Made by a program: the position numbers and the translations under genes
Sequence record: OR896837.1
DNA from: Escherichia phage vB_Eco_mar004NP2
Strand: one strand, 5' to 3'
DNA: 64,000 bases
Part shown: positions 2,707 to 64,000 of the stretch, in pieces
Layout of the letters: each line of letters opens with the position of its first letter
Position numbering within the stretch: position 1 is the first letter of the stretch
The notes under the pieces: generated by a model
What the model was told of the DNA's origin: nothing
What the model saw: the letters and a program-made list of their open reading frames with translations, nothing else
The model's database searches: none

Positions 2707-2734
2707 TGATTTATAAATTTGAGAGGAGAAAGCT

Positions 2735-4747: not shown

Positions 4748-4749
4748 AT

Positions 4750-5178: not shown

Positions 5179-5187
5179 GGAGGCAGA

Positions 5188-5580: not shown

Positions 5581-5671
5581 TTTTTACTAGCTGAACTCTG
5601 ATTACCGAGTCATTTTGGCTCGGTTTTCTCTGTACTCAAAGACACTGATAGCACCTTTGGGAAAAATTTAC

Positions 5672-5700
5672 TTGCACGGTGCTCAAAATCTTGATATAAT
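5672..5700 (+). promoter_or_regulatory. sigma70-type promoter reading into a ~0.45 kb region without a convincing ORF
   Basis: TTGCAC 5672-5677, 17-nt spacer, TATAAT 5695-5700, followed by the conserved leader-like atttatattgaattgagaga. Confidence 0.45.
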
Positions 5701-6199
5701 ATTTATATTGAATTGAGAGACATTAGTAAAAATTGATTTTGCTAATTTTTCTTGTTTACAATCCGCGATACGGAACAGTTAGGCTGCCCCATTAAGGGTT
5801 GTTTTAACTGTTACGTGTTAGTTTTTAAACAAATAGTTAATAGAATACTTAGCGATCTGCGTCCCGTAGGAACCCTGGTAAGGCCTCGAAGCAACCTAGA
5901 TAGAGGTGGTTGTGAAGTGAGACGGGAGGAGTGAAAAACTCCGAGACGTGATTCTGTAAGTTATATTGCATCTAGTATGAGCTAGTATATGAAGCATTAG
6001 GTGAGCAAATCTGGCTTAGCGGCCATCCTCAAGGATTTGTGCGGTATAGCAAAGCAGCAGCGCAGCGTGAAAGTGGAAGTTGCCACCCCACTTCAGTATT
6101 TGCGATTAATTTGTTGAGAAATTGACAGTAACAGTTGTTCTATTCTTTCTGAATAGTCCTAAAGAAAACTTATTTCATTTCCAACACAGGAGTATTGTT

Positions 6200-8989
6200 G
6201 TGTTTTCAATCCTACAAGGTCATGCAGGATTTCATCGCGATTTAGCCACAGGCAATTGGCGAGAAGTTAAAGCAGAAGATTATCTTTTTGCTAAAAGATT
6301 TTCCTCAAAGCATCCTGAAGGTAAACCAGCTTCAATGCCCTTCAAGTTTGATGTAATTGACGAAGTTGATCCTCAAACCCTAGTAGAAATGCTTCCTCTT
6401 ATGAGACGTTTAACGTCTGACCCTCATATCGTTGCGGTACGAGGTCGATGTCTTGCACCTAAAAATAATGTGCGGCGTAAGAATGGCAACTTTAATGTAT
6501 CTAACCCAAGTCATATAATTGCAATGGATGTGGATGGTATTGTAGATACAGGTGGTTGTAACAAGTTTGATCTTGTTGGCATGGCTCGACATATTATTAG
6601 AATGTTAAATAGTATTAGTGAGGATATGTTTCCTCTTGATGCAGGGTTTATCGCTCATGCATCGTCTTCGGCTGGGCTAAAACCAGGTATCCGAATGCAC
6701 TTAATACTAGAATCTAATGTTAAAGTAACTCAGGGTCAAATCAAATTCTTATTTACATCTATCAACGAAAGTAGTAGACAAAAGTATGGCTTTGATATTG
6801 CCGACTTAGCTTATTACTCTTCCGTACAGCTCCATTATTTTGCAGATCCGTTATTTACCGATGGTATAGTAGATCCGTTTAAAGAGGAGGGTGCTTCACG
6901 TCTGGTATTTGTTAAGGGTTCTAAAGTAAATTTACCCAATAATCTGGTTGACTATGAAACAACTAGAGGTGAGTTTAAAGAAGAGTTCTACTCTTTACTA
7001 GACCAAATTAAGGGTAAAAAAGCTGCCTCTGATAAAGTAGAAGAAACCATCAGCGAACTAGAAGAAGCTGAGGATGGAGTGTATCTACGTATTATTCCTA
7101 AACTCTATCACAGGGCTTTAGAGGATGGTGTTGATTTTGCATGGCTAGAAAAAGAAATCCGTCCAGCCTTATCAGAATATATTGCAACTAAAGATAATAG
7201 TCGTAATATTCAAGACTACTTTAATAATGGTCGTAAACAGGCTCTAAAAGCATTTGTTAATAATTCTAAACGTTATATACCGGATGTTTTAAAAGGTATT
7301 CCACTCAAAAAGCTAGAAACTAACTCTTTAGAGACTGATAACTTCTTGAAATTAAATACTGTGCCACCAGAAGGTTATATGACTTTTGTAAAAGCGAGTC
7401 TAGGTACAGGTAAAACTACAGCGGTTGTGCGTTGGTTAGATTCAGGAGTTATTAAAGGTAATTTCTTAGCAATTACCAATACTCGAGCACTGGTATCTTC
7501 CAATGCTAAGAAATTTAGTGCAGGACAATATGATAAGTCTGTAGATATGCTTAATTTTAAGCGTGGTGCTATTGACCGTATGTCCACAACTATTCACTCT
7601 TTGCATAAGTTCAAGAGTTTTATTGGTCAAATTGATGCAATCTTTATCGATGAATGTGATGCAGTAATGAACGACCTATTATTCGCCCCGGTTGTTAAAC
7701 AACGTCGTGAATGTATTCAGGTTCTTCGGGATATTCTTGCAACTGCAAAAATCATTATATTATCAGATGGTGATATTAGTGCAGAAACAATTGAAGCATA
7801 TGGTTCTTTGATCGAGTTTGATAAACCGGTTGCATTTTATAATCATCACCGTAAAATGCTGTCAAAAGCTCATGCTTATGAGTTTCCTGATGAATCCAGT
7901 ATTTGGGTTGCACTTCAGACTTCTCTAGAGATGGGTGAGAAATCTATTCTGGTATCTGATTGTGGCCCTGATGAGCTGAATGAGAAGGGTATGGCATTAC
8001 GTCGTAATACGGGTGCGTTAGTTAAGGAAATCCACTCAAATTCTACGTCTGATGTGGATATTAGACGTATTCTGGATTACACAACTAATGAGCTGATTGA
8101 TCAACAAATTGATTGCTTATTATGTAGTCCATCCGTAACGAGTGGAGTTGACTTCAACTATTTTGATAACGTATTCGTTATTACTAGAACCAGTAACCAA
8201 GCGCCAAACATGCGTTTTCAAGCAATCAGGCGCGACCGTGGTGCTCAGAATATCTATTATTTTATTGATAAATCTACGAGTGGATTCTCTGCAGGTTCTG
8301 AACAATATAATATTGATGAGGGCTGGCTGGAGTTAGCACAGCAATTATATGCACGTCGTAGAGAGCTGGAATCTAGAAATTATACTAGTACTTTACGTTA
8401 TTACTTGCTTGATCAGGGTGCAACTATTGATATTTTCAGCGAAAGCTGGGGAACTATTGAAGGTGCAGGGAAAGAATATATGGAAGAGCGAATCAAAGCT
8501 ATTCTACATTCAACTCCTGATTATTGTGCTCCACGTCATGCGGATGCGTATGAAGCTAAACTACTTCTTGTTCGCTATTATCATCTTGAGTCTATTAAAG
8601 ATGTAACAGTTGAGCATGTTGAACAATATATCAAGGATAAACCTAATGATCGAGCGGCATTCTTCCATAAAATGCACGAGATGTTTTGGGAAGATATTAA
8701 GAAGTGTTCAAACGTCACTATCAAACCATTCATAGAAGCTCTGAAAGGTAAGAAGAAGGACTTCTTCCTTAAAACAGGTCAGAGTGCTAACCCAAAATAT
8801 GCTAGAATGTATCTTGGTATGATGGGTATTGGTAAGGATATGAACACTGAAAATATTGTAGACTGGTACAGAACCTATTGTAAAATCGAGTGTATGCCAA
8901 TTCCTTATAAGTTTATGACTGATGAGGAGAAACATATGCATGATGAAGCAATGGCAGAGCTAGGTGCTAGAAATGACAGTGAAGAATAA
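6200..8989 (+). CDS. Large SF2 helicase-like protein (possibly replication-origin-binding / primase-helicase-like)
   Basis: ORF track 6122-8989 (TTG); start placed at GTG 6200 after aggag with 7-nt spacing (uncertain); Walker A SLGTGKTT, Walker B FIDECD; N-terminal IIAMDVDG acidic motif. Confidence 0.65.
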   Translation: MFSILQGHAGFHRDLATGNWREVKAEDYLFAKRFSSKHPEGKPASMPFKFDVIDEVDPQTLVEMLPLMRRLTSDPHIVAVRGRCLAPKNNVRRKNGNFNVSNPSHIIAMDVDGIVDTGGCNKFDLVGMARHIIRMLNSISEDMFPLDAGFIAHASSSAGLKPGIRMHLILESNVKVTQGQIKFLFTSINESSRQKYGFDIADLAYYSSVQLHYFADPLFTDGIVDPFKEEGASRLVFVKGSKVNLPNNLVDYETTRGEFKEEFYSLLDQIKGKKAASDKVEETISELEEAEDGVYLRIIPKLYHRALEDGVDFAWLEKEIRPALSEYIATKDNSRNIQDYFNNGRKQALKAFVNNSKRYIPDVLKGIPLKKLETNSLETDNFLKLNTVPPEGYMTFVKASLGTGKTTAVVRWLDSGVIKGNFLAITNTRALVSSNAKKFSAGQYDKSVDMLNFKRGAIDRMSTTIHSLHKFKSFIGQIDAIFIDECDAVMNDLLFAPVVKQRRECIQVLRDILATAKIIILSDGDISAETIEAYGSLIEFDKPVAFYNHHRKMLSKAHAYEFPDESSIWVALQTSLEMGEKSILVSDCGPDELNEKGMALRRNTGALVKEIHSNSTSDVDIRRILDYTTNELIDQQIDCLLCSPSVTSGVDFNYFDNVFVITRTSNQAPNMRFQAIRRDRGAQNIYYFIDKSTSGFSAGSEQYNIDEGWLELAQQLYARRRELESRNYTSTLRYYLLDQGATIDIFSESWGTIEGAGKEYMEERIKAILHSTPDYCAPRHADAYEAKLLLVRYYHLESIKDVTVEHVEQYIKDKPNDRAAFFHKMHEMFWEDIKKCSNVTIKPFIEALKGKKKDFFLKTGQSANPKYARMYLGMMGIGKDMNTENIVDWYRTYCKIECMPIPYKFMTDEEKHMHDEAMAELGARNDSEE

Positions 8990-9206
8990 AAAATGGGAAA
9001 CAAGGAAGTTCCCAGTAAAAGAGCGTAAAGTTCCTGTTTACGATACTTCGGAAAAGCTATGTAGGGTGGTTCCTGCTAGATTAGCTGGCATCCCTAACAT
9101 ATCCGAGTGGTTACTTAAACAACGGAAAACAAACGTGTCTCTTCGCATCGGCTTTGAATTAGATAAAGTCTATGCTGAACTTGCTTCTTTGCTCAAGGAA
9201 TCGTAA
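8973..9206 (+). CDS. Hypothetical small protein
   Basis: ORF track 8964-9206; ATG 8973 overlaps the end of the upstream gene; weak support. Confidence 0.3.
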   Translation: MTVKNKKWETRKFPVKERKVPVYDTSEKLCRVVPARLAGIPNISEWLLKQRKTNVSLRIGFELDKVYAELASLLKES

Positions 9207-9214
9207 AAATTTAT

Positions 9215-9243
9215 TTGCATAGTGCAAAAAATTTCTGTATAAT
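9215..9243 (+). promoter_or_regulatory. Strong T5-type (PN25-like) sigma70 promoter
   Basis: TTGCAT 9215-9220, 17-nt spacer, TATAAT 9238-9243, AT-rich upstream block, leader tagattcataaatttgagagaggag closely resembling the classic T5 PN25 promoter (from memory). Confidence 0.6.
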
Positions 9244-9274
9244 AGATTCATAAATTTGAGAGAGGAGTTTAAAT

Positions 9275-9979
9275 ATGGCTGGTTCTCGTAGAAAGAAACA
9301 TATCCATGAAATCCCGGATGAAGTCTTTAAAAAGGTTATAGAGCATCTGGAGAACGGTGGTACTAAGAAAGCAGCATGTGAAATGCTCGGCGTATCATCT
9401 AATCCAACTATGGAAAGAATGATTGAAGAATGGCAAGACCGCCAGATTCAAGTTGCCGAAATGAAGAAAAAGAAACGTGGCACACTCATTGAAGGCATTG
9501 AGTTAGCTAACGTTATTGAGCAGTATTTATCTGGTGATTCTTTTGAAGAAATTGCCGATCGTAATTACCGCTCTGTAGCAATGGTTAAATCTGTTCTGGA
9601 ACGATATGGTGCTCTACTTCGTTTGAACGATATTGTAGATCCATTGAATCCTCCAATTATTCCTGATGATGCTGTAGCAGAAGAATTTGCAGTTGGTGAG
9701 CTTGTTTGGGTTCCTGGATACCAGTGTATCGGTGAAATCAAAAAAGCAATGGATAATCCTGTTGGTTGTTACCGTGTATGGCTTCTATCGGAAGGCAAAC
9801 AACAGAACGTCCATTATATGAATTACGAGTTGGCCTCTGTTAAGCATCTAGAAAAGTTAGGGGTTGACGTAAAATCTCTAGGGTACAAGTGGACTCGTGA
9901 AGAAATTATTACGTTGATTAACGAAGCTGTTAAGGCCGCCCTGAAGCTTGATAAAGAAAAAGGAAAACGCCGTGAGTAA
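9275..9979 (+). CDS. Putative DNA-binding protein (N-terminal HTH-like)
   Basis: ORF track; strong SD gagaggag; N-terminal GGTKKAACEMLGVSSNPTMERMIEEW resembles an HTH. Confidence 0.55.
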   Translation: MAGSRRKKHIHEIPDEVFKKVIEHLENGGTKKAACEMLGVSSNPTMERMIEEWQDRQIQVAEMKKKKRGTLIEGIELANVIEQYLSGDSFEEIADRNYRSVAMVKSVLERYGALLRLNDIVDPLNPPIIPDDAVAEEFAVGELVWVPGYQCIGEIKKAMDNPVGCYRVWLLSEGKQQNVHYMNYELASVKHLEKLGVDVKSLGYKWTREEIITLINEAVKAALKLDKEKGKRRE

Positions 9980-10235
9980 GCTAACAGATTTGCTTAAAGA
10001 TGGAGATGTAAAATATCTCCAGCGGGATAGCTGGGGTAATTGGGACGCTCGTACTTATTACTCTACTATTATAAAAGTAGATGTTGATAATAATGATATT
10101 GTCGAGTTTACCTGGTGGCTCAATGAAGGTGGGTATACCAAGTTCGATATAAAAGACGCAACATGGAAAACCTCCTCCCTAACCCTAGAAGAAGCTCTGG
10201 CGGATGATTGGGAGATCGTTGAGCTAGATGTGTAG
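9972..10235 (+). CDS. Hypothetical protein
   Basis: ORF track 9948-10235 (TTG); GTG 9972 preceded by aaggaaaa is the preferred start; uncertain. Confidence 0.4.
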   Translation: MSKLTDLLKDGDVKYLQRDSWGNWDARTYYSTIIKVDVDNNDIVEFTWWLNEGGYTKFDIKDATWKTSSLTLEEALADDWEIVELDV

Positions 10236-51408: not shown

Positions 51409-52725
51409 TTATTTACCACGGGAAATAGAGTAAATTCCATAGCGCAGTGCATCACAAAGGTGAGAGTTAGCATCATGACGTGGTTTTTCACGTGATAATT
51501 TTTCTTCACCTTCTTGGAAATCCCATTTATAGTTCTGCAACGCATGGATTAATGAGGAACATGAAACATCTACAATAATCTTGCCTTGTTGGAATAGCGC
51601 TTGCAAGCATGCTAGGCCATCTAGGACAGATTTTTTAGCAGGGGCTGATGCAATTTCATGTTCATAAGCTAAGTCCTGGCGGAACTGAGCTGCCGCGGAG
51701 TCAACAAAAATACGATCAACTTTATAACGATCTATACAGTGCTGAATGTAAGCAGCATGCTGAGCTGTAGTTTTCTCCGCCTGCTGATACTCTTCTAATA
51801 CATAGTAAGTATCCGTATCGTAATGATACTTAATAGTAAGAACTGCTGTAGGATCACGATAACCAACGTCGATACCAAGCAACGTTTCGAATGCTTCATC
51901 ATCTTTAAAGAAATGACGCATACCCTTAAGGTCTTTAACATGGTCAATAGCATTGAAAGTATCAAAAATCTGACCTTCAAATACAGAGAAGTCAGCTTCA
52001 TATTCCTGGCGGAAGTAGTTTTTACTAACCGTACGACGTGCTTCTTCTATATCATTCAGGTCAGCACGAGGGTTATCACGATATGTACCATGAATAGATA
52101 CCCAGTTAGGCAACGTATCATCAAATCCGTAGGCGTAAAACTCTTTAAACCAGTTACCTCCACGAGGTGTGGAAATAAATAGAGCCTTAGAATTAGGTTT
52201 ATCTAGAGTAGGACGCAGCTGAACCCTGAAGGCATCACCACCCACATCGGAAATTGCCGCCTCGTCAAAGATGATAAAATCATATGAACGTCCAACCGCG
52301 GAGTCAGCCTGAGCAGCGGAAGCTAGTTTAAACAGAGAACCATTAGCTAACTCAATTTCCTTATCTTTAGCGTTCTCACGTTCAGTTTGTAGGCCATATT
52401 TTTTAATAAGACCACGAATCTGAGACCATCCGATGTTGGCCAGTGAATAGTTAGGAGCAACTACTAACACCTTCACATTAGGTTCCAGCAATTTTAGGAA
52501 CCCAAGAGTATATGCGATGAAGGATTTACCTACACGGCGTGATACACACGCCGTTACAAAACGATGTCTAGGATCCTCTAGAGCATTAATAATCGCTATT
52601 TGAGGACCATTAGGTGTAATACCTTCTTGTGCTAGTATTCCCGAAACAGGTAGACGAAAGAAACGTTTATCTATTCCGAAATCAATAACATCTACTGTAT
52701 TAACGTAAGGTCTTGATACTTCCAT
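51409..52725 (-). CDS. Terminase large subunit
   Basis: 438 aa; ATPase Walker A (ACVSRRVGKS) and nuclease half. Confidence 0.85.
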   Translation of the reverse strand: MEVSRPYVNTVDVIDFGIDKRFFRLPVSGILAQEGITPNGPQIAIINALEDPRHRFVTACVSRRVGKSFIAYTLGFLKLLEPNVKVLVVAPNYSLANIGWSQIRGLIKKYGLQTERENAKDKEIELANGSLFKLASAAQADSAVGRSYDFIIFDEAAISDVGGDAFRVQLRPTLDKPNSKALFISTPRGGNWFKEFYAYGFDDTLPNWVSIHGTYRDNPRADLNDIEEARRTVSKNYFRQEYEADFSVFEGQIFDTFNAIDHVKDLKGMRHFFKDDEAFETLLGIDVGYRDPTAVLTIKYHYDTDTYYVLEEYQQAEKTTAQHAAYIQHCIDRYKVDRIFVDSAAAQFRQDLAYEHEIASAPAKKSVLDGLACLQALFQQGKIIVDVSCSSLIHALQNYKWDFQEGEEKLSREKPRHDANSHLCDALRYGIYSISRGK

Positions 52726-53207
52726 TACTTCTTACCTCCAGTAGCTAGGGAAGTAATTAAGTCCATGTAGTTTTGATCCCCAGCTCCAGCAATAATATTA
52801 TTCTGGATGTTGGTCTGGTTAGCTGGAGTACGGGCTGCTGCCTTCACTTTCTCCAGTTCTACCATCATTTTCATTTCTTCCATTTTCATTTTATGTGCTT
52901 TCCAGAGAATATCCATAATATCTTGGTCAGAACCCATGCCAGTTTCTTCTAGTTCCTCTAGTTTACGCTTGATAACTTCATCCAGAACACCAAATAAACG
53001 ATCTCTGTTACGGAAACCACTCTCCATAAAAATATCATTTAAGTAGTTCTTAACTTCACTACGATTCATAATATCTCGAAAAGCAATTTCGGACATCCCA
53101 AGACTACGTGCGGCAGAAGGCACATCGCTGCCACACTGTAAATATGCTTCAATTACATCCATCCCTTCAGGGGACATAAGATCTGGTACTAATACATCAT
53201 TTGCCAT
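52725..53207 (-). CDS. Terminase small subunit (putative)
   Basis: 160 aa with N-terminal HTH-like segment, immediately upstream of the large subunit with overlapping stop/start. Confidence 0.55.
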
Positions 53208-53217
53208 ATTTCCTCCT

Positions 53218-54975
53218 TTAGGTAAGGCGTTGAACTGTTACTCTTAATCTCGGTAGGAAAACTGCACTACCTAAACTTACGTGCATAACTACCCCTAACT
53301 CTACATTTCCATTCCCCAGATTTTTAGCAGTATATATAAAACTATTTCTACTTAGGGCATTGTTAGGTGTGTACCTAAAAGCAGATGTAGTATGAAAAGG
53401 TACTAAATACCCTACTGGTAATGTTAAAATCTGGTGGAATATTGCATCTCCATTACTATAGCTATATGCTCTTCTTCCTTGCACTTGAAACACACCGTTA
53501 TTCCATGTATTAGCAGGAACACCTGCACAGTTAAGGTTACCTGATATAACTTCAGTGGTAAGAATTACTGTAGCATTGCCACCCGGTATACCTAGCCCAA
53601 TAGTTGATAAACCAACGTATCTATCCCCTGTTCCCGGGTAGCTGGGAGTAATATCATCCCCCATGTAAGAGCTACCTACATTTCCACCAAAAAGTCGTAA
53701 TGGAACTGCTGATGGTCCCCAAACAACCCCGTGTTCATTACCGATAGTATTATCCCTAGAGTTTACATACCATTGCTTACCCGCTCCGAATTTGTAAATG
53801 CTAATTTGGGATTTAGCTCCACCATAGTCTACAGGAGACCATAATCCTCCATTACTAGACCCTACAAGTTCACACCTTGCCGTGGTATCCCCAAAAACCC
53901 CGGTATACGCTGCGTTATTTCCTATATACTCCATATCAGGACGGTAACCTAGGTTACCAAAAGCATTCTGATTTATAAATTTATACCCGGTATTAGGGAG
54001 ACTTACCCCTTTAATTATGAAATTAGAAGGAGATATAAGAATATCAGAACCAGTAAAGGGGTTGCCTGAAATACTCATTCCACCATTAGAGTACCTTAAA
54101 TTAAGAACATACCAAATAACCTTAGTAGGGGTTATATTATACCAATCCTGTAGTATTGTAGAGTCACCCGACTGGTTAGCTAAATTAGTAGTAGATCCCC
54201 TACAAACAAATCTGTTCCCACCGTCGTGGTACATAGTATTTACATTACCTGGGAGCCCTTGTCTAACCCCACCGTATCCACGTATATTAGAGTTGCAAAC
54301 ATAAAACCAATCATGCCCTCTATGTGCTGCTCCTAGAGGCGACATCCATCCAGGATCCCAATAGTACGGGTTATTCCCATCTACAGGTACTGTGCTACTA
54401 TTAGTAGGAAAACCTAATTGTGCAAAGGCTTCTGCAACAGTAACACCTACAGGAGCTCCCGCACCAGGCCTAACTATCCCATGGTAGGTACTATGTAACG
54501 TAGTACCACCTGTACCACTCCTAGAGATAGATTCTTCGTGCCATATCGATGGGTTATAATTATAAGTTCCAGATGCTAGACTATTACCAAATGCAAATCC
54601 ACTGGTTTGAGAAACACTAGCAAAAGATCTAAAGGGGTCTGCTTGAGTGGCAACTATAGTTTGACCAACTTTACTCTGAGTACCATTAAGAAAAGCTCTG
54701 TGAGTACCATTAATCTCAATAGCAGTTAGTATAACTCTACCAGGATCATTAGATTTAATATTTACTATATCAGGAGGCATCTGACATACGAAAAACCCAT
54801 TCCCGGCATCACCTAATCCTGCCTCATAAGTACCCTCAACTAGAACAAATGGCATATCACTATGAAAAATACTATTATTACTTGGACTATAGTGACGATT
54901 AATGTCACCCCCAGATTCAGTATTTAAAGATAGTACGGTCTTACCATCGCTATACTTTCCAGCGAAAAAACCCAT
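53218..54975 (-). CDS. Receptor-binding tail protein (T5 pb5/Oad-like)
   Basis: 585 aa, divergent from the adjacent lipoprotein gene as oad/llp are in T5. Confidence 0.6.
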
Positions 54976-55000
54976 ATAATCTCCTATTATAAAAATGTAT

Positions 55001-55029
55001 TTGCTTTCATCCCTCTATTTTGCTATAAT
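55001..55029 (+). promoter_or_regulatory. sigma70-type promoter for the llp-like gene
   Basis: TTGCTT 55001-55006, 17-nt spacer, TATAAT 55024-55029, conserved leader aattcataaattagaaatggagag. Confidence 0.5.
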
Positions 55030-55060
55030 AAATTCATAAATTAGAAATGGAGAGATAAAT

Positions 55061-55327
55061 ATGAAAAAGTTTGTAATTGCACTAGTTGCCACAGTTATAT
55101 TATCTGGTTGTGTACCTGCTCCCAAACCATTTTGTACGGGATTTGTAAAATCTTTTGGTGGTGCGGGAGAAGAATATTACGGTCTCAAGGTTCAAAAAGT
55201 TCGTATTAAGGGAGATCGCTTTCCAGTAGTACAGCTCCGTACTAAATTTGGGTGGTGGGATCTCAGTCAGTTTGACCTTAAATATGGTGATTGTAAATTT
55301 AAACTAGAGCAATCTAATTACCTGTAA
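55061..55327 (+). CDS. llp: Lipoprotein, Llp-like (receptor-blocking superinfection-exclusion protein)
   Basis: Signal peptide with lipobox ILSGC; 88 aa; divergent from the receptor-binding protein gene. Confidence 0.65.
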   Translation: MKKFVIALVATVILSGCVPAPKPFCTGFVKSFGGAGEEYYGLKVQKVRIKGDRFPVVQLRTKFGWWDLSQFDLKYGDCKFKLEQSNYL

Positions 55328-55494
55328 TTAGTATAAAACAAAAAGACATCCAAGTAAACTAAATTTTTTATTTCTTGGATGGTATATTGGCAGAAACCAC
55401 TATGTAAGAAAAGTAGAAGTCCTTCTAGGAGTCCACAAGCACGGTTGGTTATGCACATATTTTAAAATATCACATTTATGGGAGCACGAAAGAT

Positions 55495-55623
55495 ATGTCA
55501 AACAAAAGAAATAATAGACGCGGAGAGGTGTATGAGAGTTGGATAAATAGTTTTGGGTTCGGAACTCTCCTATTCTTTATTTTCGTAGGTTTTTGGTTAG
55601 CAGCTATGGCGGGGTGGATTTAA
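55495..55623 (+). CDS. Small membrane protein (42 aa), first of four overlapping tiny genes
   Basis: Own translation MSNKRNNRRGEVYESWINSFGFGTLLFFIFVGFWLAAMAGWI; ggag 10 nt upstream; below ORF-track size cut-off. Confidence 0.3.
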   Translation: MSNKRNNRRGEVYESWINSFGFGTLLFFIFVGFWLAAMAGWI

Positions 55624-55730
55624 TGGAATGGGTAATTATTGCACTATTAGGGATTGTGATTATTGGGCAATGTATTTTAGATAATCACTTAGCTAGAATT
55701 GAAACTTTATTGCTGGAGAAACGTAAATGA
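55623..55730 (+). CDS. Small membrane protein (35 aa)
   Basis: Own translation MEWVIIALLGIVIIGQCILDNHLARIETLLLEKRK; TAATG overlap with upstream stop. Confidence 0.25.
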   Translation: MEWVIIALLGIVIIGQCILDNHLARIETLLLEKRK

Positions 55731-55921
55731 TGGAAGTGGCAGCTACATTAATAGTAATATTAATCTGGGCAATTTTCATTGTTTCTTATACCGCGTATGT
55801 TCGCCTAAAAACTCTAGAGGCCCAGGTAAAGCAGCAACAATTTGCACTAGAAAAATTAGTAGAGCTTCAACGCTGTGATAGTACCCGTATTCTGCAAATT
55901 GAGAGGGAATTAGATGTTTAG
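55727..55921 (+). CDS. Small single-pass membrane protein (64 aa)
   Basis: ORF track; N-terminal TM helix then coiled-coil-like tail; ATGA overlap with upstream gene. Confidence 0.45.
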   Translation: MMEVAATLIVILIWAIFIVSYTAYVRLKTLEAQVKQQQFALEKLVELQRCDSTRILQIERELDV

Positions 55922-56159
55922 TATTGTAATTGCTTTTATTATCGGGATACTCGCGGGAGTTTTCGGGACGACTGCGGCAATCAATAAGCATCGTAAATAT
56001 ATTGCGGGAGTGACGCGGGAGATTGCGGAAAGGGAGCGGAAGTTTGACGAGAAACGTGCGGAGTTTGAGCGGGAGTGGTCGGATGGATCTCGGGCGTCGC
56101 GGAAGAGATTCCGTGAGTTCAGACCAGAATACAGGTTTGATGACCCTTCTATGCGCTAA
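55914..56159 (+). CDS. Small single-pass membrane protein (81 aa) with Arg/Glu-rich tail
   Basis: ORF track; N-terminal TM helix; 3' end lies in the first copy of the 76-bp tandem repeat. Confidence 0.45.
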   Translation: MFSIVIAFIIGILAGVFGTTAAINKHRKYIAGVTREIAERERKFDEKRAEFEREWSDGSRASRKRFREFRPEYRFDDPSMR

Positions 56160-56264
56160 TTTGACTTTTGCCAATTTCTTTGGATTACGTGAGTTCAGAC
56201 CAGAATACAGGTTTGATGACCCTTCTATGCGCTAATTTGACTTTTGCCAATTTCTTTGGATTAC
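56113..56264. repeat. Perfect 76-bp tandem duplication (2 copies)
   Basis: 56113-56188 is identical to 56189-56264. Confidence 0.95.
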
Positions 56265-56336
56265 GTACGCGTGGGTGTGTCCAGTGGCCCCCCAGATGAG
56301 AATGAGTCTCATTACCGCCCGGTACTTAGCAGGCTA

Positions 56337-56373
56337 ATAGTCACGGCATGGTATCATTACACACCGTGACTAT
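56337..56373. terminator. Hairpin between convergent genes (possible terminator)
   Basis: 10-bp stem atagtcacgg / ccgtgactat with 17-nt loop; flanking U-tract weak. Confidence 0.3.
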
Positions 56374-56387
56374 TTCAACTTTAATTG

Positions 56388-57122
56388 TTAGGCAACTTTT
56401 AATTTCTCAATATATTGTTGAGGACTGCAACTATATTCTGCGCGTTCTTCCTCGGTCATACCTTCCCAGCATAATTTTAAACGGTCAGCTAGGAATTGAT
56501 AATCATTATCATCGTCGAGAGATTCATCAATAAAGGTTTCACCTATCAATGCCACGCCGATTGATAGAATATCATTAACGGCTTGTGCGTCCAGCGTTTT
56601 AAATCCGTATGACGCTGCCGCTGATAGCACGCCTTTATGATCATCAATCATTGTAAAATCAGCGTTAGGATATAACTGTTTAAATAATTCAAAATAATAA
56701 GATTTATATACTGCGTCTTTGCTGTGGTATATTTCGCTAACCTTATCAGCTTTAAAATATTTGTGTAGTGTATCGCGGGAAAATACGCGGATATTACTAT
56801 TACCACGACCGCGCAACCCTTGTTTACGCAAGAAATAATAGTCCGACTTACTCATCAGTCGAGCGGTGCAAATAATGTTTAAAGTATTTGCGTCATTCAT
56901 GCACTGGCGCATATATTCAACCAATGGCAATAAAGTATCTTGCATTATTAAATGGTGTTTACACGCTTCATTTTTATACTTATTTAAATCTAAATTGCCC
57001 TCGCTATCAAAGCAGGGTGCTATACGATGGAAAGAATTAATGATAGTGCCGTCTAAATCCCAAATCATGACGCGGGAAATATGCGGGAAGCTGCGGGAAA
57101 GATTCATGATAGCTTTATTCAT
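56388..57122 (-). CDS. dmp: HAD-family 5'-deoxyribonucleotidase (T5 Dmp-like)
   Basis: 244 aa; HAD motif I WDLDGTI near N-terminus; sits in a pre-early-type module with A1/A2-like genes. Confidence 0.7.
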   Translation of the reverse strand: MNKAIMNLSRSFPHISRVMIWDLDGTIINSFHRIAPCFDSEGNLDLNKYKNEACKHHLIMQDTLLPLVEYMRQCMNDANTLNIICTARLMSKSDYYFLRKQGLRGRGNSNIRVFSRDTLHKYFKADKVSEIYHSKDAVYKSYYFELFKQLYPNADFTMIDDHKGVLSAAASYGFKTLDAQAVNDILSIGVALIGETFIDESLDDDNDYQFLADRLKLCWEGMTEEERAEYSCSPQQYIEKLKVA

Positions 57123-57201
57123 TTGTTACGTTCTCCATTTAAGGGATTAGATTAATTCAGCATTACCCGCTATTTATAAGCGGGTAATAATAAATTAACT
57201 A

Positions 57202-57594
57202 TTAAAGACCATAAGCCAACGCATCGGCGATAAAACTAACATCCTCACCTGATACATGGGAACGAATCCCCGCACAAGTATATACTTTTGCAGAAATCAA
57301 TTGATCATCAAGGCAAGCGGGGCAAGGCGCGACAACTGCAAAGGCTAGACCGGATTTTACTGCGTCGATGATAATCGTTTCTTGTTTCGCCGTGTCAACA
57401 TAAACGCCTTTTGCTTTAATATGGCTAGTTAGTTTGCCTTGCATATATGCAAATGTTGTAACCTGCAAAGCGTCATTGAAATCTAGCAATTCATCAATAA
57501 CGTGCCCCGCCTCGACGTGGTAACGCTCACCATTAGAATAAACCAGAACAATTGAGGATTGAGCGCGGTCAAATGGAATATTTTGCTTTTTCAT
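57202..57594 (-). CDS. Hypothetical pre-early-module protein (130 aa)
   Basis: ORF track; PCPAC motif; conserved leader upstream. Confidence 0.5.
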   Translation of the reverse strand: MKKQNIPFDRAQSSIVLVYSNGERYHVEAGHVIDELLDFNDALQVTTFAYMQGKLTSHIKAKGVYVDTAKQETIIIDAVKSGLAFAVVAPCPACLDDQLISAKVYTCAGIRSHVSGEDVSFIADALAYGL

Positions 57595-57632
57595 GTTTAT
57601 AAAACTCCAATTAGTTTAATAATGGATTTAAT

Positions 57633-57890
57633 TTATTTGATAATAATCTGCATCTGGTACGGTGTTAATTCACCGTTTACGGGTAAATTATTATCGCTTA
57701 GCCACTCATAAAAAGCACCATCATCGTCAAAGGGTACAATATCATTATCACTATAATCGACCGTAATAATCCCATCAGTATTAGTTTTGGCGGCTAGAAT
57801 AGGCCCGAAGCTGTAAACTTTATCGGATTCCATTTCATCCGGTGAAATAAATGCTTTTTCGTCTAGCGTTTTGGGTAATGTAACTTTCAT
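57633..57890 (-). CDS. Small acidic protein (85 aa; candidate DNA-mimic / host-takeover factor)
   Basis: 16 Asp/Glu versus 6 Lys and no Arg by my count; location in the pre-early-type module. Confidence 0.5.
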   Translation of the reverse strand: MKVTLPKTLDEKAFISPDEMESDKVYSFGPILAAKTNTDGIITVDYSDNDIVPFDDDGAFYEWLSDNNLPVNGELTPYQMQIIIK

Positions 57891-57946
57891 TCTAATTTAG
57901 CTCCTGTAATAGCGGCTATATTTCAAGCCGCTAGGGGATTAATTAT

Positions 57947-59611
57947 TTACGCAAAGAATTTACCGTTTTTAAAGTCAATCAAAGTGCGCTGACCGTTTGC
58001 ATAGGTAATTAAATGCGTTTGCGTCCAGCTTGACGCGCCAACGTTGTAACCCATGTCCAGACTACCAGCTACGCCAGCGGTATACACGCCGCCATAAATG
58101 CTGGCGGTGTGAGTGTGTCCGGTGTTTAATTTGCCCAATTTCTTAAATTGTTTAGGATTGCCACGGCTGCCGTTAATGCCGTTGTGACCGTGTACGCCGC
58201 ATTCAATGCCTACAATCTTGAAAGATTGGTCAGTAGTTAGAAAAATGGCGTTAAACTCACAACCTGCAACCTTGCGCAGCGCATAATCTAGCACGTTGAA
58301 AGTATCGTCTTTTTCTGCAATAGCTCCATAAATCGCGGCATTTAGGCGGTGATATAGTTCCGCGTTTGCTGGATCGTCTTTAATGTTAGCATTACGATCA
58401 TCAAGCCAACGGGATAGCGCCAAATCGTGATTAGATTCAACAATGATTGTTTGCGAGAAATCACGTTCCATTGATTCCAGCACGCGCCCCGTATCGATAA
58501 GATCATCTAATACCTTATCACGTCCGGCGGCGTATTGTTTTGCTAGGAATACACCGGATGCGCGGTTGTGATGGTTGCGTGATGTAAAATCATGCACGTC
58601 ATGGATAAACTGATATTTAGGCTTGAGAATATCAAGCAAGCTATTTTCGCCAGCCCATGACGCAACGGCACAATCATCATCTAGTTTTTCTGCGTGAATA
58701 TCGCCGTATTGCAAGCCTAAAACATGCCCCGATGTCTCATAGCATCCGGCAGGAGTAGCGCACACATTCAGATCATAAAATACCCCGCTTTCGTCCATCG
58801 TTTCGAGCTGGCGTACAAAAAATTCCCCGTCCTCGTCGAACTCGACAATTAGCGCACCGAAGTTATGCAGCGCCTCGGCCTTTTGTCCTGCTTTCTGCTG
58901 AATGTAGTTTTTGAGCGTTGCCGTTCCGGTTGAGTACATACGGCGCACTACTTCACCTTTTAAAGCTGGCACGCTTTCAGCGGTAATTTTAGCGTGACCA
59001 ATTGCCAGACCTTCCAGATTAAGCGCCGTTGCAGTTTCAGCGAATCCAGAAAGCGGATAATCTGCGGTTGGCAAAACGTTAATTTCAGCCATGAAAGCAA
59101 AACGGCGGTTATTTAAAAACACGTTTTTATTGCAGATATATTTGTCAAATGCGGAATCATATTTTATTCCTTCTGCACCCTCGCCATTTTGAAAACCGTT
59201 TTTGTTATAAATAAACTTGCTAACCAGCAAATCAGCGCCGATATATTTAGCAAATTGCTCCAATGAGGCTAAAAAGTTTTTATGCGGGAAAGTATTATTC
59301 TGAATCGACGTAATAATAAAGCGTTTACCCTGCTTTACTTCCCATTGCTCAACCGTGCTAGAAACAATCCCCGCCGCTTCTGGACGCTCATCGTTTTTAA
59401 TGGCTTTTGCTACTTTCGCCGCTTTCGGTTTAGCTGGTTTATTTGCTTCCAACCAGTCGCAGATAGCGGTCGAGTGTTTTGTTGTATCGTAGACCGCTTT
59501 TGATATATCGTCGCAGACCTCCAGTTTAGTAGCGCGCAGACGTTTACCATAGAAATTAAAGTCAGCGGCCATTTTCAGGATAACGGTTTGTTTTTCTGTG
59601 GAAATAATCAT
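57947..59611 (-). CDS. A1: A1-like pre-early protein (metallophosphoesterase-type nuclease-like)
   Basis: 554 aa; calcineurin-like motifs GDIHAEKLDD, VESNHD, GHTHTA; size close to T5 A1 from memory. Confidence 0.7.
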   Translation of the reverse strand: MIISTEKQTVILKMAADFNFYGKRLRATKLEVCDDISKAVYDTTKHSTAICDWLEANKPAKPKAAKVAKAIKNDERPEAAGIVSSTVEQWEVKQGKRFIITSIQNNTFPHKNFLASLEQFAKYIGADLLVSKFIYNKNGFQNGEGAEGIKYDSAFDKYICNKNVFLNNRRFAFMAEINVLPTADYPLSGFAETATALNLEGLAIGHAKITAESVPALKGEVVRRMYSTGTATLKNYIQQKAGQKAEALHNFGALIVEFDEDGEFFVRQLETMDESGVFYDLNVCATPAGCYETSGHVLGLQYGDIHAEKLDDDCAVASWAGENSLLDILKPKYQFIHDVHDFTSRNHHNRASGVFLAKQYAAGRDKVLDDLIDTGRVLESMERDFSQTIIVESNHDLALSRWLDDRNANIKDDPANAELYHRLNAAIYGAIAEKDDTFNVLDYALRKVAGCEFNAIFLTTDQSFKIVGIECGVHGHNGINGSRGNPKQFKKLGKLNTGHTHTASIYGGVYTAGVAGSLDMGYNVGASSWTQTHLITYANGQRTLIDFKNGKFFA

Positions 59612-59708
59612 ATTAATAAAACTCCATTAAAGGGATTAAAAAACGTTTGTTATTGGCAAATATTGCCAAATATAACGCCTTGAATAATAGGCGTTATAAT
59701 TTGCAACA

Positions 59709-59906
59709 TTAATTTAAAGGCATAAGGCTAGAACTAACACCACAAGCAATGGCGGCAATAAAACAAATCAGACCTAAACGCTTTGCCAATTTAGACTTAC
59801 GTTTAAAATAATATGAGTCTAAATCATTTTGAAAATAAGCGAATAATAACGAGGCCGCCATAATAAATAAGCCTAGAATTAACGATTCAGTGGGGTAAAA
59901 GATCAT
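59709..59906 (-). CDS. Small two-TM membrane protein
   Basis: ORF track; two hydrophobic helices separated by a basic loop (KRKSKLAKR). Confidence 0.45.
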   Translation of the reverse strand: MIFYPTESLILGLFIMAASLLFAYFQNDLDSYYFKRKSKLAKRLGLICFIAAIACGVSSSLMPLN

Positions 59907-59962
59907 TTTAAAACTCCAGTCAAAGAGAAATTATAGTGGGGAATATTCCCCGCTAATTAAAT

Positions 59963-60370
59963 TTATTCACCTGCGGCCTGTTTTACTTCATCGGCAACGC
60001 CTAACAGTTGCGCTACGGCGTCCAGCGTTTCAAGTTTTGCACTTTCCAGACTTGCCAGACCGTCGGCGTCTTTAATAATGCCGGAATCAATAGCATGTTT
60101 AGCGATAACGCGTACATAGTGAGCTTTGCGGATTGAGCTACCGCCGCCAACTTTGCGAGGCTTATCGCTTTTCTGATACGCTTTTGCGCTGGTCAATTTT
60201 GATCGAACAGACACGGGAGAAGACGCGCCCACTGCTTTTGCAATCTCTTTTAAACCGTCGCTATTTGCGAAATCTAAACCGTTTTCATTAATTAACTGCT
60301 GGTACATAGAAACAGCTTTTTGAGTGTTTTCTTCATTCCAAGCAAATTTTGCGGTTTTAACGTTAGTCAT
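59963..60370 (-). CDS. A2: A2-like pre-early DNA-binding protein (tentative)
   Basis: 135 aa following the A1-like gene; size and position only. Confidence 0.45.
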   Translation of the reverse strand: MTNVKTAKFAWNEENTQKAVSMYQQLINENGLDFANSDGLKEIAKAVGASSPVSVRSKLTSAKAYQKSDKPRKVGGGSSIRKAHYVRVIAKHAIDSGIIKDADGLASLESAKLETLDAVAQLLGVADEVKQAAGE

Positions 60371-60466
60371 GGTAAAAACTCCTATTAGTTTAATTTAAGG
60401 GATAAGATTAACATAATGTTAATCGTTATATCCCCCGAACTACTGGGGGATATAAAAGTAACACTA

Positions 60467-60718
60467 TTACGCTACAGCTTCCCATTTTTCGTTACGCTGT
60501 ACAACCTTTACAACGTCGCCGGATTTAACGCGAACGCTAAAAACGGTTTTGCCGTTGTTACTACGTTCATTTTCAGCGTATACCGCGTCGATTGTATCAA
60601 ACGGCATAAGCGCCGCACCTTTAATACGTTCGGCTTTTCCGGTTAGTTCATCCGTTTTAGTAACGAAAGGAATAAAAACGGATTGACCAATTTTAGGCGC
60701 GGTAATAACGTTTTGCAT
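60467..60718 (-). CDS. Hypothetical protein (83 aa)
   Basis: ORF track; conserved leader upstream. Confidence 0.45.
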   Translation of the reverse strand: MQNVITAPKIGQSVFIPFVTKTDELTGKAERIKGAALMPFDTIDAVYAENERSNNGKTVFSVRVKSGDVVKVVQRNEKWEAVA

Positions 60719-60754
60719 AGTATAAACTCCAAGTTATTTAGGGGATTGTTCCGC

Positions 60755-60781
60755 ATTACCTGCTAGAAAGTAGCAGGTAAT
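60755..60781. repeat. Perfect 11-bp-arm palindrome with 5-nt centre
   Basis: attacctgcta-gaaag-tagcaggtaat, about 35 nt upstream of the 60718 start codon. Confidence 0.8.
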
Positions 60782-60917
60782 AAGCAACAATCCGCTCACC
60801 GCTATAATCAATTTAAGGAACTCCACGCAGGCTGCTATATCCCAGTTAGGGGGCAGGATGATTTATGGGGAATCACCTAACCGTCAAATTGTATCAAGTT
60901 ATCGCTCTCATCGAACT

Positions 60918-61206
60918 GGGTACATCTTAAAGCCTATCGGCTAGGGTGTCAAACTGTTTTTTGCAGTTTTTTATGATTTTCTTTCAGGTCGATCATAATA
61001 TTACGCCAGATCATTTCTAAACCCTGCTGGCGGCCTTTCTTGTACTGAGCAAATCGGTATTTTACGGATTGCTGGGCTATTGTCAACAATTTTTTAGTAG
61101 TACCATCTAATTTTTTAGCTGGTTTACCAGTGATCAATAAAGTTTGTTTCATATCTGCGATTCCTTATAATATAAGTTTACCGCCGATAGACTTTAAGAT
61201 GTACCC
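60918..61206. repeat. 24-bp inverted repeat pair (23/24 match) bracketing a small basic-protein gene
   Basis: gggtacatcttaaagcctatcggc (60918-60941) versus reverse complement of gccgatagactttaagatgtaccc (61183-61206). Confidence 0.85.
60949..61152 (-). CDS. Small basic protein (67 aa, Lys-rich)
   Basis: ORF track; 16 Lys/Arg versus 4 Asp/Glu by my count; SD aagga 9 nt upstream; enclosed by the inverted repeats. Confidence 0.45.
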   Translation of the reverse strand: MKQTLLITGKPAKKLDGTTKKLLTIAQQSVKYRFAQYKKGRQQGLEMIWRNIMIDLKENHKKLQKTV

Positions 61207-61575
61207 AATTTTTAAAGAGCGCGGCGGTAAACTTCCCGCCGTGTAGTTCGTCATTGCCGCCCTACGAGATAAATAATAGCAAATAGTAAAAATGGCGCAA
61301 CCTTATTTTTGTAAAGAAACGTAAAGACAAAATGCCACCGGACACCGTGCGGCGACCTGGGCGCGGCGCACTAAAATTAAAGGAAACGGGCGCGCGAATA
61401 CCATAAAACCCAGCAGGTTGGCAAGTAATTTTTTCATTTATATTTGCCTTGCCCTACTTGACAAAAACTAAAAAGCTCGTGGTAGCGATAAACGAGGGTA
61501 GGCAATGCAATGGCATGGCTAAAAACTTCATCGCGTTATAGGGCGTTTTAGGCGCATTCTAGCCTTGTTGATAAC

Positions 61576-62017
61576 TTATCCCCAAAAGCAAAAATGAAAT
61601 TTTCCTAGTTATCCACTTGACTTTTATTTTCCAGTGGATAACTACTTATTTTATGAAATAAATTAATTGACTTTTATTTGTTAGTATGCATCGGAAAGAT
61701 AGCAGACTAATAGTTGCTAGGATGATAATCATGCTGGTGGATTGTAATAGCCGGAACTGTTAGCAGACTATTAATCACGGAAAATCTCATTAGCCAACTA
61801 ACTATTTCATGATATATAATATACTTATAAATTAATGAGAAATAATAATTATAAGAAATCGTAACCGATAGAAATAATAACTATAAGAAACTATCGTCCT
61901 AAGTGAGAACCACTATCGTTTAAGTTATCCACAAGTTTATTAACAGCACAAAATGATTTGACACGATAGGCGACGATATAAGGACTTATCCACAGACTTA
62001 TCCACATGTTATCCTAC
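61576..62017. promoter_or_regulatory. DnaA-box cluster in a 1.1-kb non-coding region (origin / injection-stop-like region)
   Basis: TTATCCACA-type boxes at 61609-61617 (+), 61633-61641 (-, palindromic pair with 15-bp spacer), 61925-61933, 61986-61994, 61998-62006, plus weaker 61576-61584 and 62009-62017. Confidence 0.6.
61839..61890. repeat. Two 20-bp direct repeats (iteron-like)
   Basis: gaaataataattataagaaa (61839-61858) and gaaataataactataagaaa (61871-61890), 19/20 identical. Confidence 0.8.
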
Positions 62018-62298
62018 TGTATAAATATACAGGGTAAAAAGGTAGTGTTAACAACTGCAATCAATTTTAGGCGGCCTAAAACGCTTTCTAACGAGCTAAA
62101 TGCGGTGGGGTAATATTAAAGTGAAGCCTTCACCCGTCGCCCTGGTGGCTTCACCGTGTTTTGCTCTTTACTGTACCGCTGCGCGGTTAGCATAAAACTA
62201 GGCGCTAGGCAAGGAAAATAAAAAGGTAAAATAATATTTGCCTATGCTAGAAAATTGCCTTTATCATTCACTCACCGATTAACGAGGGAGGCCAACAA

Positions 62299-63060
62299 AT
62301 GAGGCTATATAAACCAGGTAACGCAACCGTCTTAAAAGGTGCGCTGCGTAACCTGCTGGACGGTAGCAGAACAACCAGCATTAAACATTTTATTAACAAG
62401 GCTGAAACTATTCACCAAAACTTTTTTGGTGATTTCGATGCCTATGATATGAATAGTTTTCTACCGTTATATAAACAAGGGGCAACGCTTGTTTTATATA
62501 ATCAAGATTATCAATTGCTCACTAGTCGAGGGCCGGATACTGATTTCATAATCGTAAAAGGTAGCACAGTAAAAGCCTATGATACTGGGGCAGGCTTAGA
62601 AGTTTTTTCAATAGAAAATTATGAAGCCAACCCCAATGATCTTTATGATATTGAAAATTTTCTTGATTCATTTTGGCGTTATTTATCAGTTGGCTGGAAT
62701 CGGTCGGATTGTGACGGGTATCGTTTCGCGGCTGTAATGGCCTTTGATGATAACGGTAATTTTTTGTTACCGTCGGAAGTGTACCCTTATGTATATGAGG
62801 GGGATATTGAAAGCGCGGGCTTTTCTTTCTGGAAGGAGGAAGATCAGCCTATTGACAACACGGAAAAACATGCTGTAAATTCTAACACTCAAAGCGTTAA
62901 CACTCAAACTACTGAAAACAAAGGAAATAATACCATGACCAAGATCGCTAATATCGTTGCCGCTAATAAATCCGCTGTTGTAAATGCTGCAAAACTGGAA
63001 GCTGGCAAAATTGCATTGACTCAAATCACGAAAGTAGCGGCTAAAAACCGCCGTTTATGA
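62299..63060 (+). CDS. Hypothetical protein (253 aa)
   Basis: ORF track; SD gggagg upstream. Confidence 0.55.
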   Translation: MRLYKPGNATVLKGALRNLLDGSRTTSIKHFINKAETIHQNFFGDFDAYDMNSFLPLYKQGATLVLYNQDYQLLTSRGPDTDFIIVKGSTVKAYDTGAGLEVFSIENYEANPNDLYDIENFLDSFWRYLSVGWNRSDCDGYRFAAVMAFDDNGNFLLPSEVYPYVYEGDIESAGFSFWKEEDQPIDNTEKHAVNSNTQSVNTQTTENKGNNTMTKIANIVAANKSAVVNAAKLEAGKIALTQITKVAAKNRRL

Positions 63061-63290
63061 TTAAAGGTTATATTGATACGCCGATTGGTCGGGTAGTTAT
63101 TGCTAACCTGCTGAGCGTAGCGGTTGACCAGTACGCCCCGAATAACCAGAAAGCGAAAGCGGTAGCAGGCGCAGCTATGGAAGCGGCAATGCTAGAAATG
63201 GTGCAAAGTTTTAACATCGCTGAAATGATTGATGAAATGGTGAAAGGTATCGATATTTCTACTTTTACCACTAGCACCGAAAGCGAGTAA
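63057..63290 (+). CDS. Hypothetical protein (77 aa)
   Basis: ORF track; ATGA overlap with upstream gene. Confidence 0.45.
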   Translation: MIKGYIDTPIGRVVIANLLSVAVDQYAPNNQKAKAVAGAAMEAAMLEMVQSFNIAEMIDEMVKGIDISTFTTSTESE

Positions 63291-63355
63291 TAATATTTAG
63301 TGGGGATTGTTTCCCCGCTTTACTATTCCCTTATTAATTAATAGGAGGCTAATAA

Positions 63356-63850
63356 ATGGCTGAGGAAAAATATGGGTTTTCGCTAGGGGAAGTGAGCAAG
63401 GCTAAACATGATATGATCATTTTGGTCGATTGTCATACTGGCTATTGCGGTGAAGGGAATACTGAGGAATATTTTGTTCCTGCTGGTACGGATCTCGACG
63501 CTTTCGCTCATGAAATGGCTGTTGATAATGCTTCTCGTTTTGGTAGCGATGGCTATGAAGATGAGGAAACGGGCGAATGGTATGAGAATGATAATGTATA
63601 TGCAAGCCTTTATCATTATCAATTAAGTAAATCCGGCACATATGTAAACGGCGGCGATCCTATTAATTCCGTCATGAAATTAATTATTAAATATGGTGGC
63701 GCTGAAATAATCGGAAATAAAGCGGTAATATACGCAAACCGACTAAAACAGCTTGTTTATATCCCTGATAGTACCCGATGGGATGAATACGCTGTTTTGC
63801 ATGACGAATTGAAACGATGTTTCAATATTGAAACATTACAAGTAGTTTAA
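63356..63850 (+). CDS. Hypothetical protein (164 aa)
   Basis: ORF track; strong SD taggagg; followed by a terminator-like hairpin. Confidence 0.55.
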   Translation: MAEEKYGFSLGEVSKAKHDMIILVDCHTGYCGEGNTEEYFVPAGTDLDAFAHEMAVDNASRFGSDGYEDEETGEWYENDNVYASLYHYQLSKSGTYVNGGDPINSVMKLIIKYGGAEIIGNKAVIYANRLKQLVYIPDSTRWDEYAVLHDELKRCFNIETLQVV

Positions 63851-63863
63851 TGTAAAGTTTTGT

Positions 63864-63892
63864 AAAGGTCGCCATAATTGGTGGCCTTTTTT
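63864..63892 (+). terminator. Rho-independent terminator (stem includes G-U pairs)
   Basis: aaaggtcgcc / ggtggccttt stem followed by TTTTTT. Confidence 0.45.
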
Positions 63893-63956
63893 GTTATAAT
63901 GCCTTTACACCGTTTAAGGACGGTTGAAAATTTTCCCAAAAATTTGGAGGCTTAAA

Positions 63957-64000
63957 ATGGTTGCTTATTCTTCTGCTAGTCATCTGTTTACCGCGCAAGG
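63957..64000 (+). CDS. Hypothetical protein, N-terminal fragment (continues beyond window end)
   Basis: ATG 63957 preceded by ggagg at 6-nt spacing; only 14 codons in window. Confidence 0.35.
   Translation, partial: MVAYSSASHLFTAQ

Follow-up and report, generated by a model that had tools for sequence, protein, structure and literature searches.

In phage T5 the left terminal repeat spans nucleotides 1-10219, with the end of dmp 123 nucleotides (nt) from the physical end, and the right repeat begins at 111532. A recent dissection of the T5 pre-early genes reported that A1 and A2 are essential, that A1 is required, and suffices, for degradation of the chromosome in vivo and occurs in 227 of the 227 Demerecviridae genomes examined, and that dmp raises the virulence of the phage; in the same study dmp, A1, hdi, hegG, 011, 013 and 015 were toxic when expressed singly, T5.002, T5.005 and T5.007 were deletable and non-toxic, and fewer than 15% of genomes carried 003, 009, 016 and hegG (bioRxiv 10.64898/2026.04.02.716235). 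Hdi (T5.008) of T5 stops division via FtsZ (PMC10714956), and phage BF23 too has terminal repeats and two divergent pre-early units (PMC10644984). Here we analyse the 64,000-nt stretch presented above under sequence record OR896837.1 (the window), and in particular a block of minus-strand genes at 56388-61152. Comparison with described relatives indicates that this segment is very probably the leftward pre-early operon of a T5-like phage (Tequintavirus), located in the first 5 kb of a long direct terminal repeat.

The pre-early module

The assignment of the window to Tequintavirus follows from a megablast search with positions 55000-64000, whose best matches were Salmonella phage SPLA5b, PMBT29 and Escherichia phage vB_Eco_mar004NP2 at 99.8% identity and 100% query cover. 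This search matched 484 phage records, and those matches whose taxonomy was looked up were all Demerecviridae, mostly of the genus Tequintavirus. Eight minus-strand open reading frames (ORFs) lie within 56388-61152, and the ORF list reproduced every size and motif given for them in an earlier reading of the letters made with no database searches (the sequence-only reading). Seven of the eight are 90-98% identical to T5 pre-early proteins (BLASTP against the proteins of NC_005859), with order and strand kept, and all eight match a PHROG family, with E values from 1e-33 to 1e-244; the module ORFs are therefore real genes rather than chance frames. The records of SIA3lw, pork27 and mar004NP2 show this layout in their annotations.

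The genes are transcribed in the order hdi, 007, A2, 005, A1, the gene of an 85-amino-acid (aa) protein, 002 and dmp, all from the minus strand. The first of these, hdi (60949-61152), encodes a T5.008 homologue of 67 aa with an isoelectric point (pI) of 10.4, a predicted division inhibitor that is 97% identical to its T5 counterpart over 67/67 aa and matches PF24188 (DUF7416, E 7e-37). It is followed by a T5.007 homologue of 83 aa (60467-60718), 90% identical to T5.007 and bearing DUF7177 (PF23801, E 3e-42), and by the 135-aa DNA-binding protein A2 (59963-60370; 98% to T5 A2; phrog_1725), for whose counterparts in relatives PF26822, Phage_T5_A2, is on record. Next come a small hydrophobic membrane protein of 65 aa (59709-59906), which is 98% identical to T5.005, itself annotated with two transmembrane domains, and matches phrog_4820 ('membrane protein'), and then the 554-aa A1 (57947-59611; 95% to T5 A1). 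Downstream of A1, the slot of T5.003 is occupied by an acidic protein of 85 aa (57633-57890; phrog_8297), and the operon closes with a T5.002 homologue of 130 aa (57202-57594; 94%; phrog_4576) and with dmp (56388-57122), whose 244-aa product, a deoxynucleoside-5'-monophosphatase, is 93% identical to T5.001 and matches phrog_415 (E 2e-56).

The sequence-only reading had recognised dmp, A1 and A2 from motifs, and its logic was sound: all three assignments hold on full-length alignment, at 93%, 95% and 98% identity to T5 and in the same order and orientation. Its further proposal, that five unassigned small proteins of the module are candidates for host-takeover or anti-defence functions, fared unevenly. 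The 67-aa protein has an assignment, as Hdi, and the T5 counterparts of the 130-, 65- and 83-aa proteins (002, 005 and 007) proved both dispensable and non-toxic.

The names attached to the 65-aa protein call for some care. PF26907, 'Phage_Bf23_A1', is on record for the 65-aa product at the T5.005-homologue position in relatives, and the SIA3lw record likewise labels its protein at this position 'A1 protein'. Such naming could mix up a small membrane protein with the real 554-aa A1, for which no Pfam family is on record.

Nearly all intergenic gaps of the leftward operon also contain near-perfect hairpins with arms of 20-26 nt (57152-57198, 59659-59710, 59934-59955 and 60740-60796), and the hairpin between dmp and 002 (57152-57198) is kept in T5 (889-935). 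These elements could be attenuators, RNA-processing sites or stabilisers.

Dmp carries the motif VMIWDLDGTI, with the DxDxT signature at D22-L-D24-G-T26, and six homologues all keep T86, K140 and D160-D161. Pfam HAD_2 scores 14.2 bits against it (E 0.048), below the cut-off of 23.8, and a six-sequence Dmp profile gave no significant match in the PDB, where HAD hydrolases appeared at E 0.6. PF26880, Phage_T5_dNMPase, is on record for a 100%-identical product on the Logan contig L011, and by this identity Dmp is a member of that family.

The A1 protein

The 554 residues of A1 comprise an N-terminal helical domain, a beta-rich middle domain and a C-terminal metallophosphoesterase domain, and contain the motifs YGDIHAEKLDD, VESNHD and TGHTH. 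At E<=1e-5 a database search yielded 849 homologues, of which some have N-terminal helix-turn-helix Pfam matches. Among 41 homologues, reaching down to 41% identity, the residues D304, H306, H337, D338, D341, N346-H348, S393-D396, H474, H499 and H501 are invariant; they cover the five metallophosphoesterase blocks DxH, (G)DxxD, (G)NHD/E, H and GHxH, represented in turn by D304/H306, D338/D341, N394/H395/D396, H474 and H499/H501, and thereby include the three motifs that the sequence-only reading had quoted. In the predicted model A1 adopts a beta-sandwich phosphoesterase fold, whose closest neighbours (scores in brackets) are the PolD DP1 proofreading exonuclease (14.0), MJ0936 (13.2), YfcE (12.8), SbcD (11.8) and Mre11 (11.5). 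These neighbours agree with the preprint that likens A1 to double-strand-break-repair and proofreading nucleases (bioRxiv 10.64898/2026.04.02.716235). As judged from the model, A1 is a very remote member of the metallophosphoesterase superfamily, detectable by fold and motifs only. It is the hallmark gene of the Demerecviridae, one that Pfam, NCBIfam and PDB sequence searches do not see, and annotation pipelines call it 'DNA transfer protein' or 'hypothetical' because only its motifs and fold reveal it.

The predicted terminal repeat

The sequence-only reading had also suggested that the window probably reaches from the unique region into a terminal repeat, and this is supported by an alignment of the window, the two ends of T5 and three relatives. 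T5 nucleotide 1 (TGTCCAC...) aligns with window position 56278 (TGTCCAG...), 110 nt past the dmp stop codon, the right-repeat junction sequence is conserved across this position with the repeat-start motif TGTCCA(C/G)T, the repeat annotation of SIA3lw maps within 2 nt of it, and relatives carry the segment twice. The repeat therefore probably starts at 56278 and runs past the end of the window, so that 56278-64000 would be terminal-repeat DNA and belong to the first-step-transfer region; only the first 7.7 kb of a full repeat of ~9.9-10.2 kb would be present. From the length of 9.9-10.2 kb in relatives, the end of the repeat is expected near 66.2 kb, ~2.2 kb beyond the window. The segment is found twice in relatives assembled with both ends and once in the nearest records of ~107 kb (106.9-108.1 kb), a single copy that is the usual collapse of repeats in short-read assembly.

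Just inside the predicted boundary, positions 56286-56370 occur as two unrelated sequence types in close relatives, one in the window, mar004NP2 and pork27 and the other in T5 and SIA3lw. In both types a hairpin specific to the type occupies the same position, shortly after the dmp stop codon (in the window, TAGTCACGG...CCGTGACTA).

Counter-evidence and alternative readings

Several observations weigh against the interpretation set out above, and they concern both A1 and the repeat. A1 has no match in Pfam Metallophos, in NCBIfam or, by phmmer, among PDB sequences; at E<=10 Pfam offers nothing for it except the irrelevant DUF4899 (E 0.09), and Foldseek returned nothing at E<=1e-3. Because the sequence searches and Foldseek came back empty, the assignment of the A1 fold is founded on a predicted model and motifs. 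For DNA loss caused by T5 A1, the published support is in vivo. As regards the repeat, annotated boundaries differ (56278 +/- 2 from T5 and SIA3lw, ~56372 from pork27), and the injection-stop region, at 9140-10149 in T5, is expected at ~65-66 kb and thus outside the window. A BLASTN search found no second copy of 56001-64000 in positions 1-56000, the other genome end being outside the window; since the second copy is unseen, the repeat status of this genome is argued wholly from homology.

The first alternative concerns the role of A1, which might not be a DNase itself and might instead activate a host nuclease, as a phosphoesterase or regulator, and be essential in second-step transfer and transcription shut-off. 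We consider this unlikely: the metal-binding residues are all invariant down to 41% identity, so that the site is not degenerate, unlike that of the B subunits; A1 alone suffices for loss of the Escherichia coli chromosome; and the DP1 exonuclease, SbcD and Mre11 are among the nearest folds. A second alternative, which we find quite improbable, would move the start of the repeat ~94 nt further in, to ~56372 and 16 nt from the dmp stop codon as in pork27 and chee24, and would leave the hairpin stretch 56278-56371 in unique DNA. In pork27 the annotated right repeat does begin at locus position 4305, a point 16 nt short of the dmp end, and the window shares the pork27-type and not the T5/SIA3lw-type sequence in 56286-56370; on the other hand, the ends of the T5 reference record start at TGTCCA(C/G)T, the motif found at window position 56278, SIA3lw agrees with this position to within 2 nt, and the pork27 boundary may only mirror how that record was built. 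The last alternative, in which the terminal repeat has been lost or much shortened and the pre-early genes merely lie beside the late region as a single copy, would fit the nearest records (106.9-108.1 kb), which hold the segment once, and the failure to find a second copy in the window, but can be set aside as highly improbable, since ~107 kb corresponds to unique DNA plus one repeat, as is usual in short-read assemblies that collapse the repeat, since the segment is present twice, under an annotated terminal repeat, in T5, pork27, chee24, SIA3lw and several further relatives, and since two-step injection depends on the terminal-repeat architecture. We thus retain the reading of the segment as a pre-early operon inside a repeat that probably begins at 56278.

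The control region and gene 011

Upstream of hdi lies a non-coding divergent control region of 1.1 kb (61153-62298), in which Repeat Regions 1 and 2 of T5 are fused. The two are contiguous in the window because hegG is absent, the stretch 5419-6019 of T5 having no counterpart there; Davison regarded the fused arrangement as ancestral (bioRxiv 10.1101/866236). The best sigma-70-like site of the region, TTGACA-16-TAAAAT on the minus strand, lies inside hdi at 61059-61086 and agrees with the consensus at 11/12 positions. When the T5 promoter P-H22 (4799-4873) is mapped by its offset from hdi it falls on window positions 61033-61107 and covers this site, which by sequence and position is promoter-like. 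A 39-nt inverted repeat brackets hdi (60903-61221), with arms at 60903-60941 and 61183-61221 that are 82% complementary; from its position it is probably the IRA/IRA' pair of Repeat Region 1, as described for T5 (bioRxiv 10.1101/866236).

Three perfect DnaA boxes (TTATCCACA) are present on the plus strand at 61925-62006, the only perfect ones in the 64-kb window, and four boxes with one mismatch lie at 61566-61641. The DnaA-box segment matches the published IRC-spacer-IRD element of Repeat Region 2 (bioRxiv 10.1101/866236), and positions 61901-62032, read in inverted orientation, align at 75% identity with 9411-9542 of T5, part of its injection-stop region. The supposedly untranslated Repeat Region 1 also contains a hydrophobic basic ORF of 44 aa (61303-61437, minus strand), whose coding status is uncertain; SIA3lw and several assemblies list it as a gene, and it has no homology to T5.009.

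The rightward pre-early unit begins with a homologue of T5.011 (DUF7566) at 62299-63290 on the plus strand, which is split into ORFs of 253 and 77 aa with an ATGA overlap; the 2026 preprint reports 011 as toxic in E. coli. The split arises at an A6 run near 63042, which is short by one A relative to mar004NP2, T5 and SIA3lw. The same split is present in the independent Logan contig SRR27112525_16, and a similar A5 state occurs in the pork27/chee24 lineage; in ten other relatives, where their sequence reaches the locus, 011 is intact at 330 aa (328 aa in one).

Acidic proteins in the variable slots

Two genes of the pre-early region fall in variable slots, and both encode acidic proteins. The 85-aa protein (pI 4.05) belongs to phrog_8297 and is found in 182 phage records, and among four relatives inspected beyond the T5-like records its gene lies immediately downstream of A1 in phiR2-01, S116 and CRW-SP6 (Epseptimavirus) and in the unclassified Eos. 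BLASTP detected no similarity between this protein and T5.003. A hidden Markov model of the 85-aa family aligned to T5.003 end to end at 10.5 bits, a score that 4 of 5000 shuffled sequences equalled or exceeded (empirical p ~8e-4). T5.003 may thus be a very diverged positional homologue, a hint from which we do not claim homology. The AF2 model of the 85-aa protein, from a 7-sequence alignment, was unusable (pLDDT 45). The second protein, of 164 aa (63356-63850, plus strand; phrog_6741), lies between 011 and the T5.012 homologue, has a pI of 4.5 and a net charge of -15, and is present in 345 phage records, all of which annotate it as hypothetical; BLASTP against the T5 proteins found no counterpart. 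The 85-aa protein in the first place, and the 164-aa protein in the second, might conceivably inhibit restriction or other nuclease-based defences, a suggestion that we regard as doubtful. These accessory slots are the natural first targets in a search for the restriction-insensitivity and anti-defence functions of T5-like phages.

The flanking late region and a 76-bp tandem duplication

GC skew and the annotation of mar004NP2 give the window the layout of a T5 right arm, with replication genes on the plus strand from 1 to ~28 kb and tail, head, portal, terminase and receptor-binding protein genes on the minus strand at ~28-55 kb. No tRNAs were found in the 64-kb window. The sequence-only reading had placed the pre-early module directly against the late genes, and here it has to be corrected: ~1.4 kb of plus-strand genes separate the receptor-binding protein gene, the last of the late genes (53218-54975, minus strand), from dmp. 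They comprise an Llp-type lipoprotein gene (55061-55327) and four small membrane-protein genes (55495-56159) that BLASTP identifies as homologues of T5.159-T5.162, and T5 is arranged alike.

The receptor-binding protein is 30% identical to T5 pb5, which binds FhuA, and 66% identical to BF23 Hrs, which binds BtuB; the phage probably uses a receptor other than FhuA. The lipoprotein at 55061-55327 is of the Llp/Cor type, with a signal peptide that ends in ...LSGC, and has no match in T5.

A 76-bp unit is tandemly duplicated (2.1 copies) in unique DNA at 56107-56266, and the duplication stops 12 nt short of the predicted repeat boundary. Positions 56112-56190 and 56188-56266 make up the exact shared block, and at the junction ...CTTTGGATTACGT meets GAGTTCAG.... 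The unit takes in the 3' end of the T5.162 homologue (its final 53 nt and stop codon), whose protein is unchanged. It is single-copy in T5, mar004NP2, SIA3lw, pork27 and ten further relatives, and searches for a 30-mer across the junction came back empty for IMG/VR, JGI metagenomes and the 12 listed phage records with the best matches to 56090-56300. Where a genome has one copy, GATTCCGT and GATTACGT stand at the two sides of the unit; they share GATT(C/A)CGT microhomology and suggest that the duplication was microhomology-mediated. An independent Logan contig, SRR27112525_2, matches 56237-59665 at 100% identity, and its end coincides exactly with the final 30 nt of the duplicated block; a contig break at a repeat branch is expected in a k=31 graph, which supports the presence of the duplication in the reads. 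Two contigs of run SRR27112525 encode A1 and the split 011 exactly as the window does, and this run is its apparent source. That SRR27112525_2 stops on the duplicated block led us to reject, as the main explanation, an artefact of assembly or of cutting and pasting where a contig ends. The duplication might conceivably record end-processing or recombination at the site where packaging cuts the DNA, a suggestion that we likewise regard as doubtful.

Discussion

The steps by which such a module would act are established for T5, and we infer them for the window from protein identities of 90-98% and full synteny. In the first injection only a repeat-length left end of the genome would enter the cell, where the host sigma-70 RNA polymerase would read the two pre-early units in opposite directions, starting at strong promoters that lie within and near hdi and in the control region of 1.1 kb. 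A1, with its metallophosphoesterase fold like that of Mre11/SbcD and the PolD DP1 exonuclease, would then rapidly destroy the host chromosome, and would also be needed to shut off pre-early transcription. Dmp would dephosphorylate the freed deoxynucleoside monophosphates, so that nucleosides exit the cell, while Hdi would block FtsZ-dependent division; the 002, 005, 007 and 85-aa proteins would be accessory. All of this is T5 biology that has already been published, including in the 2026 preprint that dissected these genes, and the module is ordinary for its phage group. The finding allows a confident label to be placed on this DNA, as the right arm of a Tequintavirus genome running into its terminal repeat, and has little import beyond annotation.

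Among described phages, mar004NP2, SPLA5b and PMBT29 are closest to the window: they have the same gene set, including the 85-aa and 164-aa genes, at 99.8% nucleotide identity over 55000-64000, and mar004NP2 shows ~20 point differences over the 12 kb compared (52000-64000). In all three the 76-bp unit is single-copy and gene 011 is intact at 330 aa. T5 itself (NC_005859, T5.001-T5.008 and both terminal repeats) has the same gene order, strand and gene sizes, and its module likewise follows the gene at the pb5 position, llp and four small membrane-protein genes; the two also share the promoter-like site inside hdi, the inverted repeat around hdi and the DnaA-box element upstream of 011. T5 has T5.009 and the HNH gene hegG, both missing from the window, and carries T5.003 where the window has an 85-aa protein with no BLASTP similarity to it. 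Gene 011 split by a frameshift, the extra 164-aa gene after 011, the 76-bp duplication just outside the repeat boundary, a different sequence type in the first ~90 nt of the repeat and a receptor-binding protein with only 30% identity to pb5 also set the window apart from T5.

At the level of the protein, Mre11/SbcD and the archaeal PolD DP1 offer the nearest comparison for A1, although none has detectable sequence similarity to it. Unlike these enzymes, A1 has N-terminal helical and beta-rich middle domains of its own, and in place of a Rad50/SbcC partner it is paired with A2.

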